Source: a virus
Taxonomy: Duplodnaviria > Heunggongvirae > Uroviricota > Caudoviricetes
Virus record (IMG/VR): IMGVR_UViG_2541047825_000011
Span: 1 to 39,394 of that record
DNA length: 39,394 nt
Reading direction: 5' to 3' (one strand)
In this document: piece after piece, positions 1,290 through 34,370 of the stretch
Position numbering within the stretch: position 1 is the stretch's first letter
How the letters are laid out: every line of letters begins with the position of its first letter
Translations under genes and position numbers: made by a program
Notes under the pieces: model-generated
What the model saw: the letters and a program-made list of their open reading frames with translations, nothing else
Databases searched by the model: none
What the model was told of the DNA's origin: nothing

Positions 1290-1772
1290 CTATCTGGTCA
1301 AAGTGTCGTACTGTTTTTCGCAGACTCTTCCGGCTTCGGCTGCCCGGTCAGCATACTCTGCCAGTTGTCTGTTTCTCTCGAGAGATTTGCTGAGCACGTC
1401 GGCAAGCAAAACTCCGGTGTCTGCGGCTGACGACCCAGCGCCGACAATGGCGTTATACTGCCTGAGCTGCTCACGGATGGCAAAGAGTTGTTGCTGCAAC
1501 CGGCCAGCGCTAGCGGCAGCATCAAGAGCATCATTGCGCGCCTGGTCGATCCTCTGCTGAGCTTCACGTTCATTGGTCACTTTCTCCTGTTCGTAGTACT
1601 GACGAACTTTTTCTTCTTCGGCTTTGCAGTCTTCTTTCGCCTGCGCATACCCGGCGTCGTACTGACGGATACCGTGTACATTCCAGGCAACAACTCCTGA
1701 TATGACCAGAACAGCAAGCACTGCCACGATAATCAACTGTTTCCAGTATGCTTTTACGAATGCCCAGATCAT
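1290..1772 (-). CDS. i-spanin (Rz-like)
   Basis: N-terminal TM helix ([18 protein letters not shown]), then Q/E/R/A-rich coiled coil; start overlaps the endolysin stop; contains an embedded out-of-frame lipoprotein ORF. Confidence 0.8.
1298..1573 (-). CDS. o-spanin (Rz1-like) lipoprotein embedded in Rz
   Basis: ORF lies wholly inside Rz in another frame; signal peptide with lipobox LAGC; Pro-containing mature part; start may be Met1 (1573) or Met14 (1534). Confidence 0.6.
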   Translation of the reverse strand: MNVKLSRGSTRRAMMLLMLPLALAGCSNNSLPSVSSSGSITPLSALGRQPQTPEFCLPTCSANLSRETDNWQSMLTGQPKPEESAKNSTTL

Positions 1773-2398
1773 ACCGCCAGCACCTTACTGGCAGTGACGT
1801 ACCGCGCGCGCCGGTCGTCGATGCCATTCCTGCCACCATTGATAATCAGAGTTACACGTGCAATATCGCCGGTATACTTCATGCAACCTTTGCTGGAGAA
1901 GAACCACGCCGCGCTACGAGCCGCGTATTCGTCCTGCGCCAACAGTTCAGGATTCTCCAGCAGGTCCACTTTCAGGCCGTTTCCGCAATCACGATAGTTA
2001 TTCAAACCGGTAATCTGGATAAGTCCGCGGCCACGGTAATTCCAGCCATCGCCGGGGGCATTGTTCCCCATGCGTTTGCTGTACACCAGATTGGCAATCG
2101 CTCGCTGGCGCTCGAGTGGCAATGGTGGTTCACCAGCATGGCGACCCAGTGCATTAGCCTGCCCCTGAGTGAGACGCCCAGCCCGAACGAAGTTAGCCAG
2201 TCCGCTGACACTGTAGTTGAAATTCTCCTGCAACCTGGTGAAGCCCCCAGACTCATGCCCGACTTGAGCAATAAACATTGCCTGATCTTCTGCTTTGCTG
2301 ATACCAAACTCTTTCATCGCAGAAGTTATATGCGAGAACCAGCGTGCGGCCAGCGCCTCGCTAATACCAGCAGCTCGCTGGAATTGTTTAATCTCCAT
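1769..2398 (-). CDS. Endolysin, glycoside hydrolase family 19 (chitinase-like) fold
   Basis: Track ORF 1769..2629 trimmed to the ATG at 2398 (GAGG 6 nt upstream); GH19-like motifs [10 protein letters not shown] and NFNYS. Confidence 0.85.
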
Positions 2399-2696
2399 GT
2401 TTAGACCTCGATATTTTGAAAATCTGAACAACGTTACCGCGTGTTTTAATAACCGCGGCAAGCATGACAGCGTTGATAATGACCTCAGATAAATCCACAG
2501 CCATTGGCGTGCGTAACCAGATTGCATAGACGACACGAACAGGAATACTGGCCGCAGCAACAATAAGGAAATAAGCAAGCCACCCTCCCCATCTTCGATG
2601 TTGAGAGCCGTTACGCCGGAATGTGACAACGCGAATTGCTATGCCAGTACAAATAACTGCATTGGTGATAAGCAAAAAAAACTCATGCGTTACCAT
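2388..2696 (-). CDS. Holin-like small membrane protein (holin or antiholin)
   Basis: 102 aa with three hydrophobic segments; overlaps the endolysin start and the upstream holin stop. Confidence 0.55.
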
Positions 2697-3096
2697 CGTC
2701 TTTTCTCCCCGGAATTAAATCGCGTGGATTGTCTGAACGGTGGTAGAGCCATATACCAATACGCACAGCGACAATTGCTGACACGAATGCGCCAGCAGAG
2801 AAAACAATCCCTTTTTCAAAAGAGTCCTGCGTGATGGTAGGGATCAGGCTGGCTATGCCGATAAGAATTGATGCTGCTGGTTTGTAGAAAAGAAGTCCAC
2901 AGAGAAAGCTAAGCATCGATAAGAGTACGCGACGATGAATTGGGTACTCTACCGCAGAGGTAACAAAAATTACCGCACCAGCAAGAGCACCGAGCGCCAC
3001 CTCTGGCGGAACGCCTACGATAACTGCAGCAAGAGAGCTCACACTAAGCCATTGATTTAAAGAATCAGTAGTTAGATGGGCTGACATAATGAACAC
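2683..3096 (-). CDS. Holin-like membrane protein
   Basis: 3-4 predicted TM segments; first gene of the lysis cassette; GTG at 3096 or ATG at 3087. Confidence 0.6.
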   Translation of the reverse strand: MFIMSAHLTTDSLNQWLSVSSLAAVIVGVPPEVALGALAGAVIFVTSAVEYPIHRRVLLSMLSFLCGLLFYKPAASILIGIASLIPTITQDSFEKGIVFSAGAFVSAIVAVRIGIWLYHRSDNPRDLIPGRKDDGNA

Positions 3097-3316: not shown

Positions 3317-6073
3317 TTAGCTACTTTCAAGCATTGCAAGACGTGATTCTATTTTTTCGATTCTTCTACGCAAATAAGCTGACTCAAGCCATAAACACTG
3401 GTCAGTACGGATACCCCACCTATTTCCAGCCTTGCAAACCAGAGTTCGCTCTTCTGTTTCGTATTCTTCTTCCATCTCAATTTCGACGCCATCCACAACT
3501 TTAGTGATCATCCTTACCGCCATCACTGGCGCGTATTTATCATCCCATTCATCGTAACAGAGAAGGCCAAATCTGGTTCCATCAATCCCATGCGCGAGGA
3601 AAGCGTCTCTCACTTGTTGTGCTATAACACCAAAATGCCAGCGGGCACCATCTCCCTTTTCCCTGACGGCATCAAGCCAGCGAAAAGCTACAATCCTGAT
3701 ATCTCCCCATGCATCCAGAATTGCATCACCTTCATAACCACGAGACATATACAAGCTGAGCTCACTTGTACTAATCGGTTCACTTTTTTCTCTACCATCT
3801 GATGTGTTTATCGAACCGTTCGCAGAATAAACCTGTGCCCATCTAAATGATGGTGCACCAAGAGATTTGCTGTTATCAATAATTGGTGAAAAATTACCTT
3901 TAATGGCAATATTTCCAGAGTCGCCGAATATATTAATAACTGCAGAGTCATCACCATGGTTTTTTACGCTTAAGTTTCTTGATGAAATATTTATATCTTT
4001 GTTATATCCACTAACATTAATCCATCTTTTACCATCAATGTGATGCCCGTAAATATTTCCGTTTGATTGTTCGTCAGGTGACTCTCTAAGAACAATAGCA
4101 TCTGCTCCAGACGACCATTGTATTTTTGTATCTGTAGGCCTCCAGTTCTTTATAATGAACGAACCATCAGTAAACTCCGTTTTTATTTGTCTATTGTCTA
4201 CAAATGCGTCTCTTGGTTTAAACTCACTTGTGTTAACGCTGCTCTGAAGATCAGAAGCAAAAAATCTAAGATTTCCTGTATAACCCTGAGTCTCGGTCAG
4301 GTTATACGCAATCATAATTCCATTTTCAAACTCAGATGATGTTATTTTAACATCACGGCAATCACCAAAAATGCAATTTCCTTTATCAAATGTTGTTTGA
4401 GCTTTGAATTTATCAAACCTTAAATTACGAACAGGGAAACCATCAACCTCTAATGCAAAGGATGCAGGAAGGCCAAAGTATTCTGATGGCTTACCTGATG
4501 TATGATCAAGAGTAGTGGCTACTGTATTCTCAAAAACAGTCCCGCTAAAATTATTACCAATTGACGGAAACCTGATTACACTTATTGTACCTTGTATTTC
4601 AGGAGAAATACCAGATAGTGTGATGTTAGTTCCATCAAATGATGCATCTGAATACGTATATACTAATTCACTGCCAGCAATTTTAAACTGTTTAACTGAA
4701 GTTATTCTCATCGACTTTTTATGTTTAAATGTCACTGAGCTTTCAGTATTACTTACAAGATCAATCTGAGGGCTATTCCTTATCGCGATCCCTGACTGGA
4801 CATAAACGTTATTAAAGTGCGTTTTTTCAGGATTTCCCTTCATTGAAAGGCTCCCGTCATTTTCTGTCAGTAGTAGTCCTTTTACCCTCCAATAGCCGAC
4901 AATCTGTACGTTATCAATAACTGAATCACAGCTATCGTATACATGCAACCCTATATCCCAGTCATCACCCAATGAATAAGAATCAGGGTTATTGTATCCT
5001 TCAATACCATTTTTACTTACCATTATTCTCAGGTTGCGTAACTGTGATGCCCTGTTGATACTAACAGCTACGCTCATGGCTTTTGGTGTAGCAGGAGTAA
5101 CACCTACAGAATCTTCATTTGTAAACTCAGTGAACTTACAAGATATCCCTTCAACAATTTTAACTGGTCTTTCATTAGAGATGTTAAAAAAATATTTGTT
5201 TTTTTCTCCATCACCAGTAAATACAAGATGGGTTCCTTTACTCCAACTTTTTAATAATCTTTCAGGCGCTGGTCTATATGTATCCCAATAATCAATGCCA
5301 TCACCAATTAATGACACTCCAGGAGGCACATCTATGTTCTTAGAAATCATCCATTTACCTGCAGGTATTCTAACGACACTTGCACCAGAATTTATCGCAT
5401 TAATTAACCATTCAGACGCATCAACTTCAAAATTTAATGCAGCATATCTTTGCTCAAACGGAACAAAATCAAGAGCGTTAACGTTATCCCGCATCTTATC
5501 CTGGAACGTTCGGTATACTGCTCCAGAACCATACTGAATAAACCAACCAAAACCACCAACAACTCCGGCGATTGCAGCATCAACATAATTACGCATTGAG
5601 CGATTATTTACAGCATCCTGCTCAAGTGATGGATCTGCAAGGTTAGAAATTCTGTTTTGCTTTGCATCGTAATATTTTGCAAGCAAAGATGGTTTCATCA
5701 ATGCACGTCTGAACCACCCAAAACATTGCTGGATCAGCATCGTCAGGTAGTCAAAAGCATCCTCATGAACTTCGGGGAAAAATTTTCCCTGATTGCGAAG
5801 ATCAGTCTCCTGCACCACATCAAGCACACGCTCTATCGTGATTCGCCAGCCAGCAGCAAGCGGCGACGGAAGAACCACTGCACCGCCACTATAAGTTCCC
5901 GCCCCTGTTACCGTATAACCAGCATCCAGCACTAGTTCTGTTACGTTACCGTTAAGGTCAGACACCTGAACAACCAGGTCGGATTTTTTGAAAATACGGA
6001 AGGTATACGGAAATGATGTCGTAACGCCGTTACCTGTGTATTCGTTGTGGTCAACTTCGGTTGAGACCGTCAT
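3317..6073 (-). CDS. Tailspike: T7 gp17-like N-terminal adaptor domain, central receptor-binding region, C-terminal S74-type intramolecular chaperone
   Basis: N-terminus EYTGNGVTTSFPYTFRIFKKSDLVVQV follows the T7 tail-fibre N-domain pattern; C-terminus SDGREK...RIEKIESRLAMLESS resembles the autoproteolytic chaperone of endosialidase-type fibres; central part is markedly AT-rich. Confidence 0.85.
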   Translation of the reverse strand: MTVSTEVDHNEYTGNGVTTSFPYTFRIFKKSDLVVQVSDLNGNVTELVLDAGYTVTGAGTYSGGAVVLPSPLAAGWRITIERVLDVVQETDLRNQGKFFPEVHEDAFDYLTMLIQQCFGWFRRALMKPSLLAKYYDAKQNRISNLADPSLEQDAVNNRSMRNYVDAAIAGVVGGFGWFIQYGSGAVYRTFQDKMRDNVNALDFVPFEQRYAALNFEVDASEWLINAINSGASVVRIPAGKWMISKNIDVPPGVSLIGDGIDYWDTYRPAPERLLKSWSKGTHLVFTGDGEKNKYFFNISNERPVKIVEGISCKFTEFTNEDSVGVTPATPKAMSVAVSINRASQLRNLRIMVSKNGIEGYNNPDSYSLGDDWDIGLHVYDSCDSVIDNVQIVGYWRVKGLLLTENDGSLSMKGNPEKTHFNNVYVQSGIAIRNSPQIDLVSNTESSVTFKHKKSMRITSVKQFKIAGSELVYTYSDASFDGTNITLSGISPEIQGTISVIRFPSIGNNFSGTVFENTVATTLDHTSGKPSEYFGLPASFALEVDGFPVRNLRFDKFKAQTTFDKGNCIFGDCRDVKITSSEFENGIMIAYNLTETQGYTGNLRFFASDLQSSVNTSEFKPRDAFVDNRQIKTEFTDGSFIIKNWRPTDTKIQWSSGADAIVLRESPDEQSNGNIYGHHIDGKRWINVSGYNKDINISSRNLSVKNHGDDSAVINIFGDSGNIAIKGNFSPIIDNSKSLGAPSFRWAQVYSANGSINTSDGREKSEPISTSELSLYMSRGYEGDAILDAWGDIRIVAFRWLDAVREKGDGARWHFGVIAQQVRDAFLAHGIDGTRFGLLCYDEWDDKYAPVMAVRMITKVVDGVEIEMEEEYETEERTLVCKAGNRWGIRTDQCLWLESAYLRRRIEKIESRLAMLESS

Positions 6074-6176
6074 GTTAAATCTCCAGATAGTCGCAGCACC
6101 CGTTGCGCCGCATATCTGGTTATTCTATTACCTGAAAAACCACATATGGATAGAAAGACTGTGAATACGAACAGAT

Positions 6177-6193
6177 ATTACCTTTCGGGTAAT
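6177..6193. promoter_or_regulatory. Operator-like palindrome ATTACC-TTTCG-GGTAAT
   Basis: Perfect 6-bp inverted arms with 5-bp spacer, 17 bp total, in the intergenic region upstream of the + strand antirepressor island. Confidence 0.6.
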
Positions 6194-6229
6194 TTGCAAA
6201 ACGTGCTGGATAGCAAACAAATTATTTGA

Positions 6230-6249
6230 TACTGTATAAATATACAGTT
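6230..6249 (+). promoter_or_regulatory. LexA (SOS) box
   Basis: TACTGTATAAATATACAGTT matches CTGT-N8-ACAG with an AT-rich spacer; about 20 bp upstream of the ATG at 6269. Confidence 0.7.
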
Positions 6250-6268
6250 ATTGCATGGAGAAGATAAG

Positions 6269-6526
6269 ATGCAGCAGTATCACTATCCACTGGAAGACGG
6301 ATTTACCGAAAGGATTCACACGCCGGGAGGCGTCAGGTCACTGGTGGAGGGATCGCACTTGATGAAATTACTCCGGGATCTCGATAAGGATGGATTTAAT
6401 GTCGATGGCCCACTTGCCGAACTGACTGCACTGATTAACTACGTCACCAGCTCACAGATGTCTATGCAGGATCTGCAAACACATCTCGACTATTGTGCCG
6501 AACAATTACGAAAACAAACCAGATAA
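6269..6526 (+). CDS. Small antirepressor-like protein, stand-alone homolog of the C-terminal domain of the adjacent BRO-N antirepressor
   Basis: ATG 6269 with GGAG 8 nt upstream (track ORF starts at TTG 6251); HTPGGVRSLVEGSHLMKLLRDLDKDGFNVDGPLAELT...QTHLDY aligns with HSPSGVLGLTENSLLMNLLNKLQEDGHDVSGAAAELT...QTHAEY of ORF 6840..7532. Confidence 0.65.
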   Translation: MQQYHYPLEDGFTERIHTPGGVRSLVEGSHLMKLLRDLDKDGFNVDGPLAELTALINYVTSSQMSMQDLQTHLDYCAEQLRKQTR

Positions 6527-6555
6527 GGTTTGCAATTACCAAGTGGAGTGCTTAT

Positions 6556-6574
6556 ATTTACCTTTGAGGTAAAT
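6556..6574. promoter_or_regulatory. Operator-like palindrome ATTTACC-TTTGA-GGTAAAT
   Basis: Perfect 7-bp arms; sits in the loop of a longer inverted repeat AAGTGGAGTGC ... GCACTCCTCTT (6541..6591). Confidence 0.6.
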
Positions 6575-6839
6575 TTACATCGCACTCCTCTTGTGCCATA
6601 GTAATCGGGCACTGGCAAAATCCAGTGCCGGGATTGGCGTCCCGAGTTACTACAGAGGCACATATGCCGCATAAGCGGTTTTTTTTATGTGTAAAGCGCA
6701 CCTATTCTATGGTGGGCTGTGTGGGGGCACCGAAAGGTGCGCCGGGTCCTTTGTAGCCGGTTACGCCAACCCTGCACAGTTCACCACCAACCGATTGGCG
6801 TCGGTAGTGGTGATTAACCTAACTACAAAGGTGATCGCC

Positions 6840-7532
6840 ATGAATACCAAACCTTCCATCTTTTCCTTTGAGTCATCCTGCCAGATCCGTATGTTCATGA
6901 TTGACGGAGAACCTTGGTTTGTCACCAAAGATGTGTGCAATGCTTTGAATATTGATGTTACACAAGCGAGAAAACTTGATAAAAAAGGCTGGAACAAAAA
7001 GGGGCTGTATTCAATACAGACCCCTGGTGGAATACAAGAACTATCCATCGTTTCAGAATCAGGTCTCTACATCCTTATTCTGCGTTGCAAAGAGGCAATG
7101 ACTGAGGGAACGAGAGCATTCAGATTTCTTGAATGGGTTACAGGTGAGGTTCTTCCTCAGATCCGCCGCACCGGAAGTTACATTAAAAACTCGCTCCCGC
7201 AGGAAGAACGCATAAAGATGGTTGCCGACCAGGTAGCCAACGCCACGGCGTCAGCAGTAATGCAGGCGATGAAGATAGAGAACAAAACCTACAGCGCCCC
7301 ACTGAAGCCCGGCTACCGTAGCCTGATTCATTCGCCGTCTGGTGTTCTCGGCCTGACGGAGAACTCACTGCTGATGAATCTGCTGAACAAGTTACAGGAA
7401 GACGGGCACGATGTATCGGGCGCGGCAGCGGAGCTGACCACCATGTTCTGCTACATCGTCGGTGTGAGCAAATGCCTGCGTGATATCCAGACGCACGCGG
7501 AGTACATCAACGACAAAGCAGGGTTCTTCTGA
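6840..7532 (+). CDS. Phage antirepressor with BRO-N type N-terminal domain
   Basis: Track ORF 6687..7532 trimmed to ATG 6840 (GGTGA upstream); N-terminal FESSCQIRMFMIDGEPWFVTKDVCNALNI ... ESGLYILILRCKEAMTEGTRAFRFLEWVTGEVLPQIR matches the Bro-N/antirepressor pattern. Confidence 0.8.
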   Translation: MNTKPSIFSFESSCQIRMFMIDGEPWFVTKDVCNALNIDVTQARKLDKKGWNKKGLYSIQTPGGIQELSIVSESGLYILILRCKEAMTEGTRAFRFLEWVTGEVLPQIRRTGSYIKNSLPQEERIKMVADQVANATASAVMQAMKIENKTYSAPLKPGYRSLIHSPSGVLGLTENSLLMNLLNKLQEDGHDVSGAAAELTTMFCYIVGVSKCLRDIQTHAEYINDKAGFF

Positions 7533-7603
7533 CGGGCGGCGGCACAGGGATGTGCCTTTAAATAATTCTGTACAGATTGCAGACTGGGGGTGAATAGCGT
7601 ACT

Positions 7604-7620
7604 ATTACCTCACGGGTGAT
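7604..7620. promoter_or_regulatory. Operator-like palindrome ATTACC-TCACG-GGTGAT (one mismatch)
   Basis: Same architecture as the other sites; upstream of the orphan gene 7761..8396. Confidence 0.5.
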
Positions 7621-7656
7621 CCATAGCGATTAGGCACCGATACAGGAGGAGCCCAC

Positions 7657-7689
7657 ATGAGAAAATTTGACGAGTACGAAGGCGTTTAA
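7657..7689 (+). CDS. Possible 10-codon leader ORF (MRKFDEYEGV)
   Basis: ATG 7 nt downstream of a perfect AGGAGG; lies between two operator-like sites; may be regulatory rather than a protein. Confidence 0.2.
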   Translation: MRKFDEYEGV

Positions 7690-7703
7690 CATTCGGATAG
7701 TTC

Positions 7704-7722
7704 ATTTACCCTAATGGTAAAT
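7704..7722. promoter_or_regulatory. Operator-like palindrome ATTTACC-CTAAT-GGTAAAT
   Basis: Perfect 7-bp arms, about 40 bp upstream of ATG 7761. Confidence 0.6.
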
Positions 7723-7760
7723 CCCGCTTAAAGAAGCATCTATATATTATGAGGTGATGT

Positions 7761-8396
7761 ATGCCACAACAACTGCTGAATCCGGCAAAGGTAACTGAGG
7801 TTTTCGCTCATCTGAACGAAACTCCAGACAACCGCGCCCTGTATTCAGAGTTAGTGAACGGCAACGATGTCACATCTGATGTCAAAGGCGTTTCTCTGGC
7901 TCCTGGATACCGCGTTGTCCGTGTAGACGATCGTAAGAAAGGCGAGATTCCACAGGCGCACTTTGAACTGTCATTGATAAATGACCTCACCGAAGAGGTA
8001 GTGTATTACAATCGTGTCATTATCCAGCCTGACAGCTATCTTAACTGCCGTCCTGTCACGCAGATATTGGTATGGAGAACCCAGAAGCCTAAGCATCGTG
8101 CTGTGCTTCATGATTTCGCCGGCATCATCTTCATGAACTACCTCTTGGAACGGTACGATATCATCGTGTCAGATCGCAACCAGACTCATGAAGGCATGTC
8201 GTTCTGGCAGGCTCGCATGTATGACGCACTGGAACTTGGCCTCCACCTCTATGGTTACGACATGATGACATGCGAGCTGATAGAGATGAATAACGAGGAA
8301 GAGCTTGAGAAAGGTGAAACCTGGTTGTGGGGTGATGCGGAAAACTTCCAAAACAGATTGGCCATAATTTCAAAGCATAAGCTGCCAATAAAATAG
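7761..8396 (+). CDS. Orphan protein of unknown function in the accessory island (211 aa)
   Basis: ATG with GAGGTGA upstream; no TM segment and no motif I recognise; own operator-flanked upstream region and a strong terminator. Confidence 0.7.
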   Translation: MPQQLLNPAKVTEVFAHLNETPDNRALYSELVNGNDVTSDVKGVSLAPGYRVVRVDDRKKGEIPQAHFELSLINDLTEEVVYYNRVIIQPDSYLNCRPVTQILVWRTQKPKHRAVLHDFAGIIFMNYLLERYDIIVSDRNQTHEGMSFWQARMYDALELGLHLYGYDMMTCELIEMNNEEELEKGETWLWGDAENFQNRLAIISKHKLPIK

Positions 8397-8505: not shown

Positions 8506-8919
8506 TTATAAAGATGACTGATATTTTACAACTCTGTTCATGGCATCTTTTTTCACCGAGCTGATATCAGTTCTTATTTTGGCTTCGTCATTACTGCTTA
8601 TCATGCTATTAATTTTTTGCACTGACATGCCGTTTCTTTCAGCCATTGCACATACAGCAGCATCGTATGAAGAACTCGCTGCGATGGATATCACCTTGTT
8701 ACACTCAAACACAGCACCTTCAGCAATATCAGATGCCGATGAGGCTGGCTTGGTATAAGTCTTGACGTAGTGATCAATACAACTATCCTTCGCCGTCTTG
8801 GCAAGAGAAAAATCCATTTTAACTTTGTCGCAATATGCCTTATCAACACCGTCATAAACATCATAGGATGTCGAGCAAGCGGATATCAAAAATACCGATA
8901 ACAGCAATAATTCCTTCAT
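8506..8919 (-). CDS. Lipoprotein at the end of the virion operon (candidate superinfection-exclusion lipoprotein)
   Basis: Signal peptide with lipobox LISAC; 137 aa; several Cys in the mature part; last gene of the structural operon. Confidence 0.7.
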   Translation of the reverse strand: MKELLLLSVFLISACSTSYDVYDGVDKAYCDKVKMDFSLAKTAKDSCIDHYVKTYTKPASSASDIAEGAVFECNKVISIAASSSYDAAVCAMAERNGMSVQKINSMISSNDEAKIRTDISSVKKDAMNRVVKYQSSL

Positions 8920-8928
8920 TGTTGTTCC

Positions 8929-11403
8929 TTATTGCGGAGTGACATCCTGAGGTCGCCACCAGTATGTCTGGTTAAACTCTTTCTTTGAACGTTGCTCCAT
9001 TTTACGCAAATAGCCTGGTGAAAAATACTCCTGCATCTGGTTAAAGATCATGTGATCGAGAGCCGCCTTTAAGTACCAGAGATTCGCACCTGGCATCAGA
9101 CCTTTCCCCAGCTTAACCAGATCACCACCAGTCTGCTCATTCTTCCCTTCCACAGCATTTAACGGTATGCCCTGAGCAATCTTCACTACGTCATCAACCA
9201 GACCAGCTACCGGGCCAAGCATCGACGCCAACGCGCCGCTTCCGTACCTGGTGTGGTCAGAGAAAAGAAAATCACCATACAACCCTGCACCACCACCTTT
9301 TAAAAATGCATTTATCCAGAATTTAACCATGTTGTCACCGGTCATTTCTTTTGGATTTCTCCCATTAATAAGATCAGTAATCTGCATGGAAAGAGCACCA
9401 AGCATGGTTGTGCTTGCTAAAAACGTTGCTATATATGCTGCACGCCCACCAGCAGACGGCATCCCCATAGCTCTATGCCAGTGACGCATAACTACCGAGA
9501 TAGGGAACGATTTAAACAGGAAAACACTTCTCGTTAATTCACCTTTCCATGTTCCACGCTGAAGACCAGACCCTACGAACATCTGTTCACGTGCGCCCGG
9601 TGTAATAACAGCCATATCAACTTCTTCAGTTACGGCACCGAGCAGTTTACGCATTGCCTCAAATTTCACGCGTTCAGGCTCACCAAGATGTTTAACTGCT
9701 GAATCAGGGATACGCATAATGCTTTCCGGTGTCAGCATCGTATTATTACCGTTCCCCCAGTCCTCCTGTTGCGCCAGCTTCCATACGCTCCAGTCTGTGT
9801 CAGTAATCCCTTTGCTTTTCAGGATACGAAAATCAGAGTCATCGAGGCTACGAAGGTCTGGTGTCCGTGACACTACTTCTCCCAGGCTTCCCATCATGGT
9901 TACGCCATAGGCGCGCTTGTGCGCATCTGACCATGCTGTAAGCCCACTGGCACGCATTACCGCCGTTGCCGCCCAACGAGACACAGACGGCCCCATATTA
10001 TCCATCGCCCAGCGGTTAACGCTGCCAAGTAGAGATTCCATCGCCAGGCCAGCGCGGCGCGCCCGCGCAAGCTCAGTACGGTTCGTTGGGTCCATAGCTT
10101 CAAGCTGGTTGCGAAATAACTGGTTCATTGGAAGGTTGGTAACCTTCGCAGACAGATACATGGTTCCAAGATCAGAGAACGATGACAGCAACGCGGATCC
10201 GAGTCTGCTGGCAACCAGCCAGTTGCGGATATTGTCAGACCATCGCGCGATGTGCGGATTCGCTACAGGCTGTGTTTTTCCGGAAATAAAGTTGTACAAG
10301 TTCTCTGTTTTGTTCGCCAGACGCTCGACGCTACCGGTTTTACTCGGGTTAGCTGTTGCCGTTTCTGCCTTAACCTGATCAAGAAGAGAGCGGAAAACAT
10401 GATCGGGGTTTGGGCCATATGTTTCCACCAGCGCAATATCTTTACTGATACCTTCCAGGTGACCGACCATGATTTCCCATAGAGAGCGATCGCCATAAAG
10501 TTGCTGATATTGCAGATAGGAATCTGCATCTTTGAAATGTATCTGTCGTGATGCATTACCACGGTTAGCACGTGCGCCGGAAATTCGCATTCCGGTATCA
10601 GTAAGCTTATTCAGCCCACCAGTAGCGATCGTGTTATAAGCCTCTCCAAGAAATTCAGACAACTCGGCATCGTTCATCAGTTGTCCATCGGCTCGGGTAT
10701 AATATTTGCGATCCAGCTTACCTATAACATCGCTAACCCACTTATCCTTTGATACCGCCCCAACCTTTTCCATAGAATGATGTTGAGGGATCCCCCAGTT
10801 TTCGAGATAGCCAATGTCACCACCAGCATCATTAAACCGGCGGCGCAGTAGCTCTGTCACTTCTCTCCACGCCTTAGCACCTTTTCTTGCTTTAGCATTG
10901 CCAGTATTTTGCCCTCGCATTTCATATACCAGATCACGCACGCCCGCTTCATCTTCAAACAGGCCAAAAAAGCGAGGATCAACTGCTTCAAATGCCTCCT
11001 GCAATTGACTCAATGCATAATCACGGGTGGCTTTTGTTCTGGATTCAACAGAGAGGAAATTAGATTTACCGTCTGCATTAAAAGCTATAGTACGGTTAAG
11101 AGCGCCAAGTTTCCCATCAGCCCCTTGATAGCTATTGATAAATTTATCCAATCTCTGACGCGCGGCTATAGTGAGAGCCACACGACGTTTCTTTAATGCC
11201 GCTTCTCGCTGTAATTCTTCAGATGCCAATTGTGCTGCTCGATATAGCCGCTCTGATTCGGAAAGTTGTCGCCACGACATCGGGTCATCACGAGCAATGG
11301 AGCGCATATTTCGATAAATGCGGTCTTCAATGTTCTGTATTTCTCGCGCCGTTAACATGCGCTGCGCCGCCTGCTGGACAGCTTGTATACATTCCTGTCT
11401 CAT
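8929..11403 (-). CDS. Internal virion (ejection) protein, large; T7 gp16-like position
   Basis: 824 aa; last large ORF of the virion operon; assignment by size and synteny only. Confidence 0.6.
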   Translation of the reverse strand: MRQECIQAVQQAAQRMLTAREIQNIEDRIYRNMRSIARDDPMSWRQLSESERLYRAAQLASEELQREAALKKRRVALTIAARQRLDKFINSYQGADGKLGALNRTIAFNADGKSNFLSVESRTKATRDYALSQLQEAFEAVDPRFFGLFEDEAGVRDLVYEMRGQNTGNAKARKGAKAWREVTELLRRRFNDAGGDIGYLENWGIPQHHSMEKVGAVSKDKWVSDVIGKLDRKYYTRADGQLMNDAELSEFLGEAYNTIATGGLNKLTDTGMRISGARANRGNASRQIHFKDADSYLQYQQLYGDRSLWEIMVGHLEGISKDIALVETYGPNPDHVFRSLLDQVKAETATANPSKTGSVERLANKTENLYNFISGKTQPVANPHIARWSDNIRNWLVASRLGSALLSSFSDLGTMYLSAKVTNLPMNQLFRNQLEAMDPTNRTELARARRAGLAMESLLGSVNRWAMDNMGPSVSRWAATAVMRASGLTAWSDAHKRAYGVTMMGSLGEVVSRTPDLRSLDDSDFRILKSKGITDTDWSVWKLAQQEDWGNGNNTMLTPESIMRIPDSAVKHLGEPERVKFEAMRKLLGAVTEEVDMAVITPGAREQMFVGSGLQRGTWKGELTRSVFLFKSFPISVVMRHWHRAMGMPSAGGRAAYIATFLASTTMLGALSMQITDLINGRNPKEMTGDNMVKFWINAFLKGGGAGLYGDFLFSDHTRYGSGALASMLGPVAGLVDDVVKIAQGIPLNAVEGKNEQTGGDLVKLGKGLMPGANLWYLKAALDHMIFNQMQEYFSPGYLRKMEQRSKKEFNQTYWWRPQDVTPQ

Positions 11404-24982: not shown

Positions 24983-25020
24983 TTGACATTTAACGCACAA
25001 ATTATTACCTTTCAGGTAAC
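24983..25020 (+). promoter_or_regulatory. Candidate promoter (-35 TTGACA) with overlapping operator-like palindrome ATTACC-TTTCA-GGTAAC
   Basis: TTGACA at 24983..24988; palindrome at 25004..25020 where a -10 would lie; oriented toward the tRNA. Confidence 0.4.
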
Positions 25021-25340: not shown

Positions 25341-25417
25341 GTGGCATTAGCTCAGTTGGACAGAGCAACCGCCTTCTAAGCGGTTGGTCGCAGGTTCGAA
25401 TCCTGCATGCCACGCCA
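25341..25417 (+). tRNA. tRNA-Arg (anticodon UCU)
   Basis: 77 nt cloverleaf by hand: acceptor GTGGCAT/ATGCCAC, D-arm GCTC..GAGC, anticodon stem ACCGC/GCGGT with loop CTTCTAA, T-arm GCAGG-TTCGAAT-CCTGC, encoded CCA; differs from host argU in acceptor and anticodon stems. Confidence 0.9.
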
Positions 25418-27209: not shown

Positions 27210-27802
27210 TGATTACCATCCTGACGTTCTTTGAGTCGCTTCCTGGCTGCCGCTATGCGATCAGCAATTGTCACATTCACATTAACATCCAGGCGTTCTT
27301 TGAACGCGTTGACGTCGACGTGCTTACCAATCAGTTCGAGGTTCTTCACCTTGTCAGGCCATTTAATTTTTTTGAGGATTGTCTCTATCGAATCCTCGTT
27401 CATGTTCATGATGGTCGATGACAGATCAAAGCCACTAAGCGTAGTGCGCCAGATTTTCGGCCACTCGCGGATTGGCTTAAGGCTCCCATCGTCGTTGAGG
27501 ATGTCGATCACGTCCATCTGGTCGATCTCCACTAGGCGCATGAGAACGTAATCAGCACTGACGCGCATTCGTTTGTTGCGCTCCTCCATCAACTCGGCAA
27601 TCCGTTTTTGAATGCGTTCATCGCGCATCATGACACTGGCTTTAACTGCCGCTGTATTTGGGGAGAATCCTGCGTTAATCGCTGCCTGAGTCTGGTTTTC
27701 AGGCGTTTTGATGTATGACTGGCAATAAGCCTCCTGCATTGCTGTTAGTGGCTTAAATTGCGTTGATTTGCGTTTATAGGTTTTAGGTTCAGCAGGCATC
27801 AT
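27206..27802 (-). CDS. Terminase small subunit
   Basis: Track ORF 27206..27898 trimmed to the ATG pair at 27802/27799 because a hairpin with T-run and direct repeats occupy 27803..27898. Confidence 0.6.
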   Translation of the reverse strand: MMPAEPKTYKRKSTQFKPLTAMQEAYCQSYIKTPENQTQAAINAGFSPNTAAVKASVMMRDERIQKRIAELMEERNKRMRVSADYVLMRLVEIDQMDVIDILNDDGSLKPIREWPKIWRTTLSGFDLSSTIMNMNEDSIETILKKIKWPDKVKNLELIGKHVDVNAFKERLDVNVNVTIADRIAAARKRLKERQDGNQ

Positions 27803-33496: not shown

Positions 33497-33650
33497 AGCT
33501 ATTGCCTGATATTTATTTCAGATAATAAATATTCACCCATAAGGTAACAAAAATCAAGGATAGTTACCTGTGGGGTGCATTTACCTGTTGGGTAATATTG
33601 CTTTAAATTGAATCATCTACTGATTCATATATGAGGCGATTTTCCAGAAA
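33497..33650. promoter_or_regulatory. Immunity-region operator/promoter cluster
   Basis: Three ACC-N5-GGT sites (33532..33548, 33563..33579, 33579..33597) plus a 24-bp AT-rich palindrome ATATTTATT-tcagat-AATAAATAT (33509..33532) between the divergent cro and repressor starts. Confidence 0.7.
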
Positions 33651-34235
33651 ATGAAAAGTATCCAGGACGTCCGCAGGCAAAATCTCAACGACTTGATCGA
33701 CCGTGAATTCAATGGTGTTCAGACGCGGATGGCTGAAAAACTTGGAACTCAGGCAAATCTGGTAAACCGCTGGGCTCTTGGCAAGAAGGTTATCGGCGAC
33801 CAGGTTGCACGAAAAATTGAAGCTGCCGCCAATAAACCCCGTAACTGGCTTGATATCGATCGCTCGCTTTCTCAGGAAGGTTTTCAGCCTGTCGGCCCAA
33901 GCGACATTGGCCAGCTGGCGGCTCACAACCTGGAACGCTGGATGAGCGAAAGCCGCGACCTTTCAACACAGGGAAAACTTCACCGCGCATCCGGCGTAGC
34001 CCAGGTGACAATCAGCCGCCTGTTAAACAATGAGGTCAGCGTTTCCATTTCCACCCTGGAGAATGTTGCATCCGCATTCGGGCGTCACGGCTATGAATTA
34101 CTGATTCACCCGCACGACCCTGCGACCATCAACTATGATCGCTCGCGCTACGCATTGTTACCCGAAACCGAGAAAGCAAAGATCGAAAGTTACATTGAAT
34201 TTGTCATCAACCAGAACGAAAAAAACAAACAATAA
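33651..34235 (+). CDS. Prophage repressor (cI-like) with two HTH motifs and no recognisable autocleavage module
   Basis: 194 aa; two XRE-type HTH segments (QTRMAEKLGTQANLVNRWALG and KLHRASGVAQVTISRLLNN); no Ala-Gly or Cys-Gly dipeptide and no S24-like C-terminal region. Confidence 0.75.
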   Translation: MKSIQDVRRQNLNDLIDREFNGVQTRMAEKLGTQANLVNRWALGKKVIGDQVARKIEAAANKPRNWLDIDRSLSQEGFQPVGPSDIGQLAAHNLERWMSESRDLSTQGKLHRASGVAQVTISRLLNNEVSVSISTLENVASAFGRHGYELLIHPHDPATINYDRSRYALLPETEKAKIESYIEFVINQNEKNKQ

Positions 34236-34291: not shown

Positions 34292-34308
34292 ATTACCTAA
34301 CGGGTAAT
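34292..34308. promoter_or_regulatory. Operator-like palindrome ATTACC-TAACG-GGTAAT
   Basis: Perfect arms; upstream of the early-left promoter. Confidence 0.6.
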
Positions 34309-34326: not shown

Positions 34327-34370
34327 TTGACATCAAACCATATACGCATAATTATTACCTCAACGGTAAC
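34327..34370 (+). promoter_or_regulatory. Early-left promoter candidate (-35 TTGACA) with overlapping operator ATTACC-TCAAC-GGTAAC
   Basis: TTGACA at 34327..34332; AT-rich -10 region around 34347..34355; palindrome at 34354..34370; GAGGT RBS and ATG 34389 follow. Confidence 0.55.

Follow-up and report, generated by a model that had tools for sequence, protein, structure and literature searches.

A probable two-tier anti-immunity locus in a Uetakevirus: a LexA-gated antirepressor and its putatively C4-controlled BRO-N fusion paralogue

The DNA considered here, the 39,394-nucleotide (nt) stretch of IMG/VR record IMGVR_UViG_2541047825_000011 (hereafter the window, meaning this whole stretch), is that of a Uetakevirus podovirus of the epsilon15/phiV10 group. 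The locus under study contains two genes encoding related proteins, the small antirepressor Ant of 85 amino acids (aa) and Ant2, in which an Ant-like domain is fused to a BRO-N head (BRO-N::Ant); between them lie an isrK-like RNA and a C4 antisense RNA, a LexA box precedes ant, and the phage repressor, Rep, is encoded elsewhere in the window (Table 1). The data discussed below make it probable that this is a two-tier anti-immunity (secondary immunity) locus, in which LexA-gated Ant serves SOS induction and C4-locked BRO-N::Ant mainly sets immunity specificity. Over positions 6100-7760 the best relatives are Escherichia phages EC.W1-9, TL-2011b, ZX5, and phiV10, with 93-97% identity. The ant gene sits antisense between the genes for the tailspike and a virion protein, in the same position and orientation as in phages SPC32H and epsilon15. 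In the original prediction, made from the sequence alone, the placement between the virion operon and the tailspike gene, together with the phage operator carried there, was taken for a departure from known systems. This view has to be abandoned, since the arrangement is exactly that of SPC32H and epsilon15, and the gene position, orientation, operator, and upstream LexA box shared by these two phages make the supposed departures the family norm.

Table 1. Features of the antirepressor locus, its borders, and the repressor region (positions are those of the window)
Feature	Position	Strand	Details
LexA box	6230-6249		TACTGTATAAATATACAGTT; two mismatches to TACTG(TA)5CAGTA
P_ant (inferred)	6207-6235	plus	-35 TGGATA (6207-6212), 17-nt spacer, -10 TACTGT (6230-6235)
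Operator upstream of small ant	6177-6193		ATTACCTTTCGGGTAAT; exact palindrome ATTACC-N5-GGTAAT
ant (Ant, 85 aa)	6269-6526	plus	orthologue of SPC32H Ant and epsilon15 gp19; phrog_450
Promoter-like sequence	6530-6558	plus	TTGCAA-17-TATATT, from promoter scan; -10 end overlaps operator 6557
Operator upstream of isrK	6557-6573		TTTACCTTTGAGGTAAA; abuts -35 of isrK promoter
isrK promoter (putative)	6574-6602	plus	TTTACA-17-CATAGT, TG-extended; start ~6609, first base of isrK match
isrK-like RNA	6609-6685	plus	Rfam RF01394, 74.2 bits (gathering threshold 50)
Decoy site a1 in isrK	6634-6640		in loop
Decoy site b1 in isrK	6650-6658		CTACAGAGG
Intrinsic terminator of isrK	6666-6685		hairpin 6666-6679, then T-run; only plus-strand one in the region
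C4 antisense RNA	6705-6791	plus	Rfam RF01695 (clan CL00128), 79.5 bits (gathering threshold 45); model positions 1-87 of 87
Target a2 in ant2 leader	6795-6801	plus	TTGGCGT; exact complement of a'
Target b2 in ant2 leader	6823-6831	plus	CTACAAAGG; exact complement of b'
ant2 (Ant2, BRO-N::Ant)	6840-7532	plus	BRO-N residues 16-106; Ant-like C-terminal domain residues 149-225
rep (Rep, 194 aa)	33651-34235	plus	HTH_3 at residues 106-147; second HTH-like match at 21-61
Rep-type operators flanking rep	33580-33596, 34292-34308, 34354-34370
Strong TTGACA promoter downstream of rep	34328-34370		-10 overlapped by operator
Rep-type operators upstream of cargo gene	7604-7620, 7705-7721
Cargo gene (211 aa)	7761-8396		phrog_1349 match
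Gene for 137-aa protein	8506-8919	minus	lipoprotein-like N-terminus (LISAC); phrog_8691, unknown function
Tailspike/tail-fibre-like gene (918 aa)	3317-6073	minus	left border of locus
Virion protein gene (824 aa)	8929-11403	minus	right border of locus

Residues 2-84 of Ant match PDB 5D50_E (“Anti-repressor protein”) with E 4e-47 (phmmer), and the protein is 88% identical (tblastn) to the product that the records of Salmonella phages SPC32H and SPC32N call “ant: anti-repressor protein”. Ant is 84-100% conserved across the genus, and Ant and Rep are found in essentially the same phage records (35 and 36). In RefSeq the small protein of E. coli genomes is named a hypothetical protein, and its PHROG entry reads unknown function. 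The near-consensus LexA box that had been predicted just upstream of the 85-aa gene is indeed present, unique, and conserved in relatives. It is the sole site with at most three mismatches in the 39-kb window, no such site appeared in 100 shuffles, and its end lies 19 nt from the ATG at 6269, with the ribosome-binding site GGAG at 6257-6260. Alignment places the box at the same position in phiV10, TL-2011b, EC.W1-9, SPC32H, epsilon15, and Tyrion. Counting the window and 86 relatives, it was found in 80 of 87 loci, and the seven loci without it include some in which the flank of ant is cut off. The CTGT/ACAG arms are constant across the relatives and the interior is variable, which is the pattern of a site under selection.

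The promoter of ant, P_ant, was placed at the hexamers TGGATA and TACTGT for two reasons. A block, TGCTGGATAG, is invariant in seven relatives and precedes by 17 nt the TACTGT with which the LexA box begins, and in phage 186 the annotated SOS promoter p95 has as its -10 the TACTGT of its own LexA box. By this analogy P_ant would occupy positions 6207-6235 and be overlapped by the LexA box, the first half of which is the putative -10. Other hexamer pairings were tried by eye and were poor. Upstream of P_ant lies the operator at 6177, which is conserved in seven of seven Uetakevirus relatives and whose epsilon15 counterpart is annotated in the record as a repressor binding site. Just upstream of this operator a second CTGT-N8-ACAG sequence (GACTGTGAATACGAACAGAT, 6159-6174) was considered as a second LexA box and rejected; it is probably due to chance or very recent, because it is absent at the aligned position in the six phages in which the LexA box was aligned.

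Rep, the presumed target of Ant, matches the SPC32H repressor (PDB 5D50_A) over residues 1-190 with E 4e-42, and is 41.8% identical to the product of SPC32H “rep” (tblastn). It is 100% identical to the phiV10 repressor and 98.5-100% identical in 17 E. coli phage records. It had been described as a repressor with two helix-turn-helix (HTH) segments and with neither an S24-like region nor an Ala-Gly/Cys-Gly cleavage site, and this description holds: in the profile search for Peptidase_S24, Pfam gave HTH families only, with no Peptidase_S24 match even at E<=1, and neither AG nor CG occurs as a dipeptide in the Rep sequence. In comparison with SPC32H, Ant is thus far better conserved (88%) than Rep (42%), and the operator half-sites are common to both phages; the Rep surface bound by Ant may be a conserved patch. 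With at most two mismatches allowed, the window contains 12 copies of the operator pattern ATTACC-N5-GGTAAT where 0.99 would be expected, and none of 100 shuffles reached 12. The phage operator palindrome that the original prediction had placed at the locus is therefore real, with four of the 12 copies here and three flanking rep. Five more matches to the pattern lie outside both immunity regions, at 25004, 27801, 27819, 31237, and 31299, those at 27801 and 27819 being adjacent to each other.

The SPC32H system is reportedly the subject of two studies, Kim and Ryu in J Virol in 2013 and Kim et al. in PNAS in 2016, with PDB entries 5D50 and 5D4Z. [quoted passage not shown] In another paper's summary of the 2016 structure (PDB 5D50), Rep binds DNA as a tetramer, which is broken when an Ant tetramer engages two Rep dimers. 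By orthology, the same steps would make up the first tier in the window. LexA would sit on the box overlapping P_ant; DNA damage would remove LexA, so that Ant is made, and Ant would bind Rep and break its DNA-binding tetramer, which would leave a non-self-cleaving repressor still SOS-inducible. The likeness to SPC32H extends to the orthologous Ant and Rep, the LexA box directly upstream of ant, and the Rep operator upstream of the box. Downstream of ant the two differ: SPC32H has only a terminator there, whereas the window adds an isrK-C4-BRO-N::Ant cassette and cargo genes. The LexA-gated small antirepressor acting on a non-self-cleaving repressor, as originally proposed, is thus supported by homology to the solved SPC32H proteins; by itself this claim repeats a published and crystallised mechanism and adds little. 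The Ant/Rep circuit is already known from SPC32H, and what the window adds to it is a known RNA-gated cassette.

The resemblance to the induction of coliphage 186 by Tum and of Gifsy prophages, which had also been put forward, concerns logic and not homology. As in 186 Tum and Gifsy GfoA/GftA, LexA would repress a small antirepressor that inactivates a non-cleavable repressor, and the LexA box of 186 p95 differs very little from the boxes of epsilon15 and SPC32H. The antirepressors themselves, unlike their control, have no sequence relationship to Ant: pairwise comparison with Tum gave E 0.061 over 46 residues, and Ant could not be aligned with the 73-aa open reading frame (ORF) downstream of Gifsy-1 dinI, which we take to be gfoA. 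It might be argued that the LexA box and the small gene are relics and that induction proceeds through RecA-stimulated loss of Rep or by another route. We regard this as very improbable: the 84-100% conservation of Ant in the genus, the constant arms and variable interior of the box, and a Rep with neither S24 domain nor cleavage dipeptide all stand against it, and they have to be set against the mere 42% identity of Rep to the characterised SPC32H protein and the spontaneous release of phage at high titre by ZX5 lysogens (PMC9782041), on which such an argument could draw.

The second protein, Ant2, is recognised at its N-terminus by Pfam Bro-N (PF02498; E 1.7e-13; score 51.4 bits, cut-off 25.6), and it also matches PHROG anti-repressor families; a PADLOC scan gave no match for it. 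Its C-terminus matches PDB 5D50_E with E 1.3e-13, and Ant aligns to Ant2 residues 149-222 with 42% identity (E 6e-20), in line with the alignment of the 85-aa product to the C-terminal domain of the BRO-N antirepressor that had been noticed earlier. The accompanying idea of a stand-alone repressor-binding domain, and of the same domain on a BRO-N head, gains support from the sequence match to the solved chain, from this paralogue alignment, and from 21 positions that show no variation among the small Ants and the fused domains. In ZX5, overexpression of the BRO-N antirepressor reduced lysogens from 1e9 to 1e6 plaque-forming unit (PFU)/mL equivalents (~1000-fold) and repressor transcripts by 75% (PMC9782041). 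The BRO-N::Ant gene of phiV10 (locus L001, 3740-4419) is frameshifted into ORFs of 194 and 29 aa, and phiV10 is a working temperate phage. Further downstream genes with an Ant-like domain, 42-44% identical to small Ant, occur on the minus strand at L007 (4960-5187), L023, L025, L035-L037, and other loci; no isrK-C4 module was detected with these genes, which argues that the Ant-like domain has spread beyond the two contexts described here.

The BRO-N gene had been treated as a member of the SOS antirepressor locus. It does lie in that locus, but it is not simply a part of the SOS unit, as it has operator-flanked promoters of its own, an isrK-like RNA, and a C4 RNA predicted to pair with its ribosome-binding site. 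No terminator was found from the stop codon of ant to isrK. The promoter-like sequence that follows ant shares its overlap of -10 and operator with the strong promoter downstream of rep, and its variant upstream contexts keep, as judged by eye, a TTGnnn -35 and a TATnnT -10. Among 76 distinct modules, obtained as described below, the half-sites TTACC/GGTAA of the operator at 6557 are kept in nearly all, the central 5 nt being variable, and the -35 of the putative isrK promoter is identical in 75 and its -10 in all 76. Besides the Rfam matches given in Table 1, a permissive scan found the family c4-a1b1 (RF03163, “a1, b1 targets of C4”) at 6596-6648 with 44.3 bits, below the gathering threshold of 46.7.

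In the predicted fold of C4 both recognition elements are unpaired, a' (ACGCCAA, 6763-6769) in a single-stranded stretch and b' (CCUUUGUAG, 6748-6756) in the loop of hairpin 2. The pairing of b' with b2 extends over 9 nt and would cover the AAGG of the ant2 Shine-Dalgarno sequence AAGGTGA, and that of a' with a2 over 7 nt. The decoy site a1 (TTGGCGT) is an exact complement of a', and b1 pairs with b' with one G-U. An ORF starting at the ATG at 6709 has 15 codons, short because the b' loop creates an in-frame TAG, and its stop lies 84 nt ahead of the ant2 start. The in-frame ATG at 6687, which would give a 281-aa protein, was rejected as the ant2 start; it lies in the T-run of the terminator and lacks a Shine-Dalgarno sequence, and the ORF would cross the C4 RNA. 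Many database entries nevertheless lengthen the BRO-N protein to 279-281 aa and absorb the C4 RNA, and in the ZX5 annotation an “ash family protein” is placed over C4 (window positions 6625-6839; locus L087, 3955-4068).

To follow this RNA layer in relatives, viral contigs were searched with BRO-N::Ant proteins, which yielded 80 loci with 3-kb flanks, and in 80 of 80 the isrK-C4 module lies directly upstream of BRO-N::Ant. Because the alignment set one a2 type one column out of register, complementarity was checked by an alignment-free scan, which found 95 modules (76 of them distinct) in 85 loci. These fall into seven (a',b') types, built from three a forms (ACGCCAA, AGACCAA, and GTGCAAA) and four b forms (CCTTTGTAG, CCTTTTAG, CCACTTAG, and CCTGTGAC). 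Each a or b form is changed on all three partners, isrK, C4, and the ant2 leader. The exact complement of the cognate element is present as a2 in 95 of 95 modules, as b2, at the Shine-Dalgarno sequence, in 94, and as a1 in 94; b1 is cognate in all 95 if one G-U or a one-base-shorter match is allowed. In nine loci (L020, L012, L017, L018, L019, L024, L027, L032, and L045) there are two or three modules; within a locus they all differ in a'/b' type, and every module drives a separate gene whose product has an Ant-like C-terminus. Those of L020 lie at 1729-2098 (minus), 2677-3046 (plus), and 5427-5799 (minus), and in one of them a1 is mismatched to its own a', which suggests recombination.

The E. 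coli phages with a Rep 98.5-100% identical are found in five different states. The window itself has a'/b' ACGCCAA/CCTTTGTAG; phiV10, TL-2011b, and ZX5 have ACGCCAA/CCTTTTAG; EC.W1-9 has AGACCAA/CCTTTGTAG; phiv142-3 has AGACCAA/CCACTTAG; and HEMP4 has ACGCCAA/CCACTTAG. PAS61, with the same Rep, has no isrK-C4 module. Across this set of phages the fusion has one and the same Ant-like C-terminus and the N-terminal domain is exchanged, with three BRO-N variants and a different head in phiv142-3, whereas in Tyrion and Klebsiella phages, the Rep of which is divergent, the C-terminal domain of the fusion is divergent too. The C-terminal domain thus goes with Rep, unlike the RNA type and the head, which assort freely. 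The RNA-BRO-N cassette as such is accessory, as the phiV10 copy is frameshifted and SPC32H and epsilon15 have no module.

This linkage of the C-terminal domain to Rep, against free swapping of the N-terminal one, bears on the possibility that Ant2 is not aimed at the resident Rep, either because its Ant-like domain only oligomerises or because the protein acts on the repressors of other prophages or on host DNA via BRO-N. The C-terminal domain is only 42% identical to Ant, one source presents BRO-N domains as general DNA-binding heads (PMC7313666), and antirepressor cross-talk between prophages is known. Nevertheless, this possibility appears improbable in view of the co-divergence with Rep, the 21 invariant positions, and the finding that the ZX5 protein pushes ZX5 itself towards lysis (PMC9782041).

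For the second tier the following order of events is proposed. The operator-flanked promoters would drive the isrK-like RNA, most of which would be terminated, and read-through would give C4 and the ant2 mRNA. The a' and b' of C4 would pair with a2 and b2 and cover the Shine-Dalgarno sequence, leaving BRO-N::Ant untranslated, and the a1 and b1 sites of isrK could compete for C4. The block of ant2 translation and the competing sites are suggested by the sequence, by the covariation, and by the precedents of P1 and Gifsy. It is known from P1 and P7 that the type of C4 sets immunity specificity, and features of the immI type are the RNase P processing of C4 from a longer transcript and repression of ant in trans. 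As C4 would act in trans, and its specificity takes no fewer than seven co-varying forms among phages sharing one Rep, the main role of the second tier is likely to be the setting of this specificity. A resident prophage would silence ant2 in incoming phages of its own RNA type, and a phage of another type could express Ant2 and overcome the shared Rep. The population pattern, read by analogy with P1 and P7, is consistent with RNA type acting as the immunity specificity among one-Rep phages. The second tier may also reinforce induction, because transcription from P_ant would run on into it and its promoters have Rep operators beside them.

A stronger form of this proposal is that among the one-Rep E. 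coli Uetakeviruses immunity specificity is written in RNA rather than in the repressor, the C4/isrK lock picking the BRO-N::Ant that can be translated in each lysogen. We put this forward tentatively, as a possibility that the present data leave somewhat on the doubtful side. In that case, phages of another RNA type, or those with two or three differently typed modules, could break the immunity of otherwise homoimmune prophages and induce them. The fusion would then put the Rep-binding fold of the SOS-gated Ant to a second use, and through the paralogous domains a single repressor surface would be the common target of SOS induction and of anti-immunity.

The main rival to the two-tier reading holds that the second tier does no more than amplify SOS induction in cis: once Rep has been inactivated by Ant, the operator-controlled promoters fire, P_ant transcripts read through, excess isrK titrates C4, and Ant2 locks the phage into lysis, with no role in immunity between phages. 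The ant gene is contiguous with the module, no terminator lies between them, Rep operators overlap or abut both module promoters, and in Gifsy-1 IsrK drives AnrP synthesis and prophage induction (PMC4825925). All of this would suit an amplifier, yet the repeated three-way compensated switches of a1/a'/a2 and b1/b'/b2 would be left without a reason, and the differing types among same-Rep phages and the always-different modules of one locus would go unexplained. Moreover, TL-2011b and EC.W1-9 have an insert of about 1.1 kb, coding on the opposite strand (L003 3280-4368; L004 3782-4697), between ant and the RNA module, so that there the module is uncoupled from read-through from P_ant. A purely cis-acting amplifier is, for these reasons, considered unlikely, though not as remote as the other alternatives.

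Several observations weigh against the two-tier reading. At the level of the first tier, a consensus promoter scan of the region gave no promoter at P_ant, and the binding of Rep by Ant is extrapolated across a Rep that is only 42% identical to that of SPC32H. The operator at 6177 is centred near -57 of the presumed start and could serve repression, activation, or the divergent tailspike gene. At the level of the second tier, co-resident modules of the same type were seen in none of 11 pairs against 2.65 expected, a weak statistic (P ~0.045) taken over loci that are mutually related and not independent. The heteroimmunity role leans on the P1/P7 analogy. The tier is dispensable, being absent from PAS61, SPC32H, and epsilon15 and frameshifted in phiV10. 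Finally, the mechanism of the Gifsy orf45 is not transferable as it stands, given that the ORF has 15 codons here and ends well before ant2.

The immI operon of P1 and P7 is reported to consist of the c4 antisense RNA, icd, and ant, a description said to go back to Citron and Schuster in 1990. The two-tier locus resembles immI in its C4-family RNA with single-stranded a' and b', in the a1 and b1 sites upstream, in the a2 and b2 sites at the ribosome-binding site of the downstream antirepressor unit, in the repressor operator at the promoters, and in specificity types that vary between related phages; one paper likewise gives the a1 b1 / a' b' / a2 b2 layout as that of the P1 c4 system (PMC7313666). 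Unlike P1, the window has no icd, its C4 targets the Shine-Dalgarno sequence of the antirepressor gene itself, and BRO-N::Ant is unrelated to P1 Ant. Gifsy-1 has the same tandem of isrK and C4 Rfam matches upstream of the antirepressor-like gene anrP, with the same a-site sequence as the window; AnrP and Ant2 gave no significant BLASTP alignment (best E 3.3), and the Gifsy-1 isrK promoter, in contrast to that of the window, is without a Rep-type operator. In Gifsy-1, the isrK promoter transcribes anrP through terminator read-through, the long RNA is translationally silent, short IsrK activates it in trans via a coupled 45-codon ORF, and STnc1160, a stable RNA produced by processing, has been mapped to the region downstream of isrK; Hershko-Shalev et al. 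likened isrK to the seqA / CI / seqC system of P4, which has the same layout (PMC4825925).

The pairing of an SOS-gated antirepressor with a second anti-immunity unit under a small processed RNA is found in N15, which has a LexA-controlled antC and an RNA-controlled immA operon (Ravin et al., 1999; Mardanov and Ravin, 2007). There, however, the two are separate loci, whereas here the units are adjacent and their proteins share one domain. ZX5 (Li et al., 2022; PMC9782041) is a further studied case, belonging to the same genus and having identical Rep and small Ant, the same C-terminal domain on BRO-N, and an isrK-C4 module; it differs from the window in its BRO-N variant and in its b type, CCTTTTAG, and the paper is silent on small Ant, the LexA box, and the RNAs. 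In the APSE phages of Hamiltonella (Rouil et al., 2020), isrK and C4 also lie beside a BRO-N gene, and matches of C4 a'/b' upstream of that gene were already noted (PMC7313666), but neither an Ant-like domain at the C-terminus nor a partner gene under LexA control is reported there. Our literature search found no description of the paralogy of two antirepressors, of an RNA lock in Uetakevirus, or of typing among same-Rep phages. The parts are each known, and only their combination appears undescribed.

Prophages of the phiV10 type are common, and relatives serve in O157 typing and detection. Of 5,426 complete E. coli genomes, 113 contain the whole locus at coverage of at least 80%, and 998 contain parts of it. 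The analysis brings a gain in annotation, as small Ant is still labelled hypothetical or of unknown function in RefSeq and PHROGs and C4 is hidden under an “ash family protein” or ORFs of 279-281 aa. If true, RNA-typed immunity would explain both the coexistence and the cross-induction of phages with identical repressors, and would supply natural orthogonal pairs of antisense RNA and target.

Beyond ant2, the 211-aa gene preceded by two Rep-type operators looks like repressor-controlled cargo; its product has no Pfam match and no PADLOC match. A 10-codon mini-ORF with a strong Shine-Dalgarno sequence lies ahead of it at 7658-7690. The 137-aa gene near the right border takes the place of a small membrane protein present there in SPC32H and phiV10, and a PADLOC scan of its product gave no match. 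Elsewhere in the window, a tRNA-Arg gene (anticodon TCT, 25341-25417) is found on the plus strand amid minus-strand genes.

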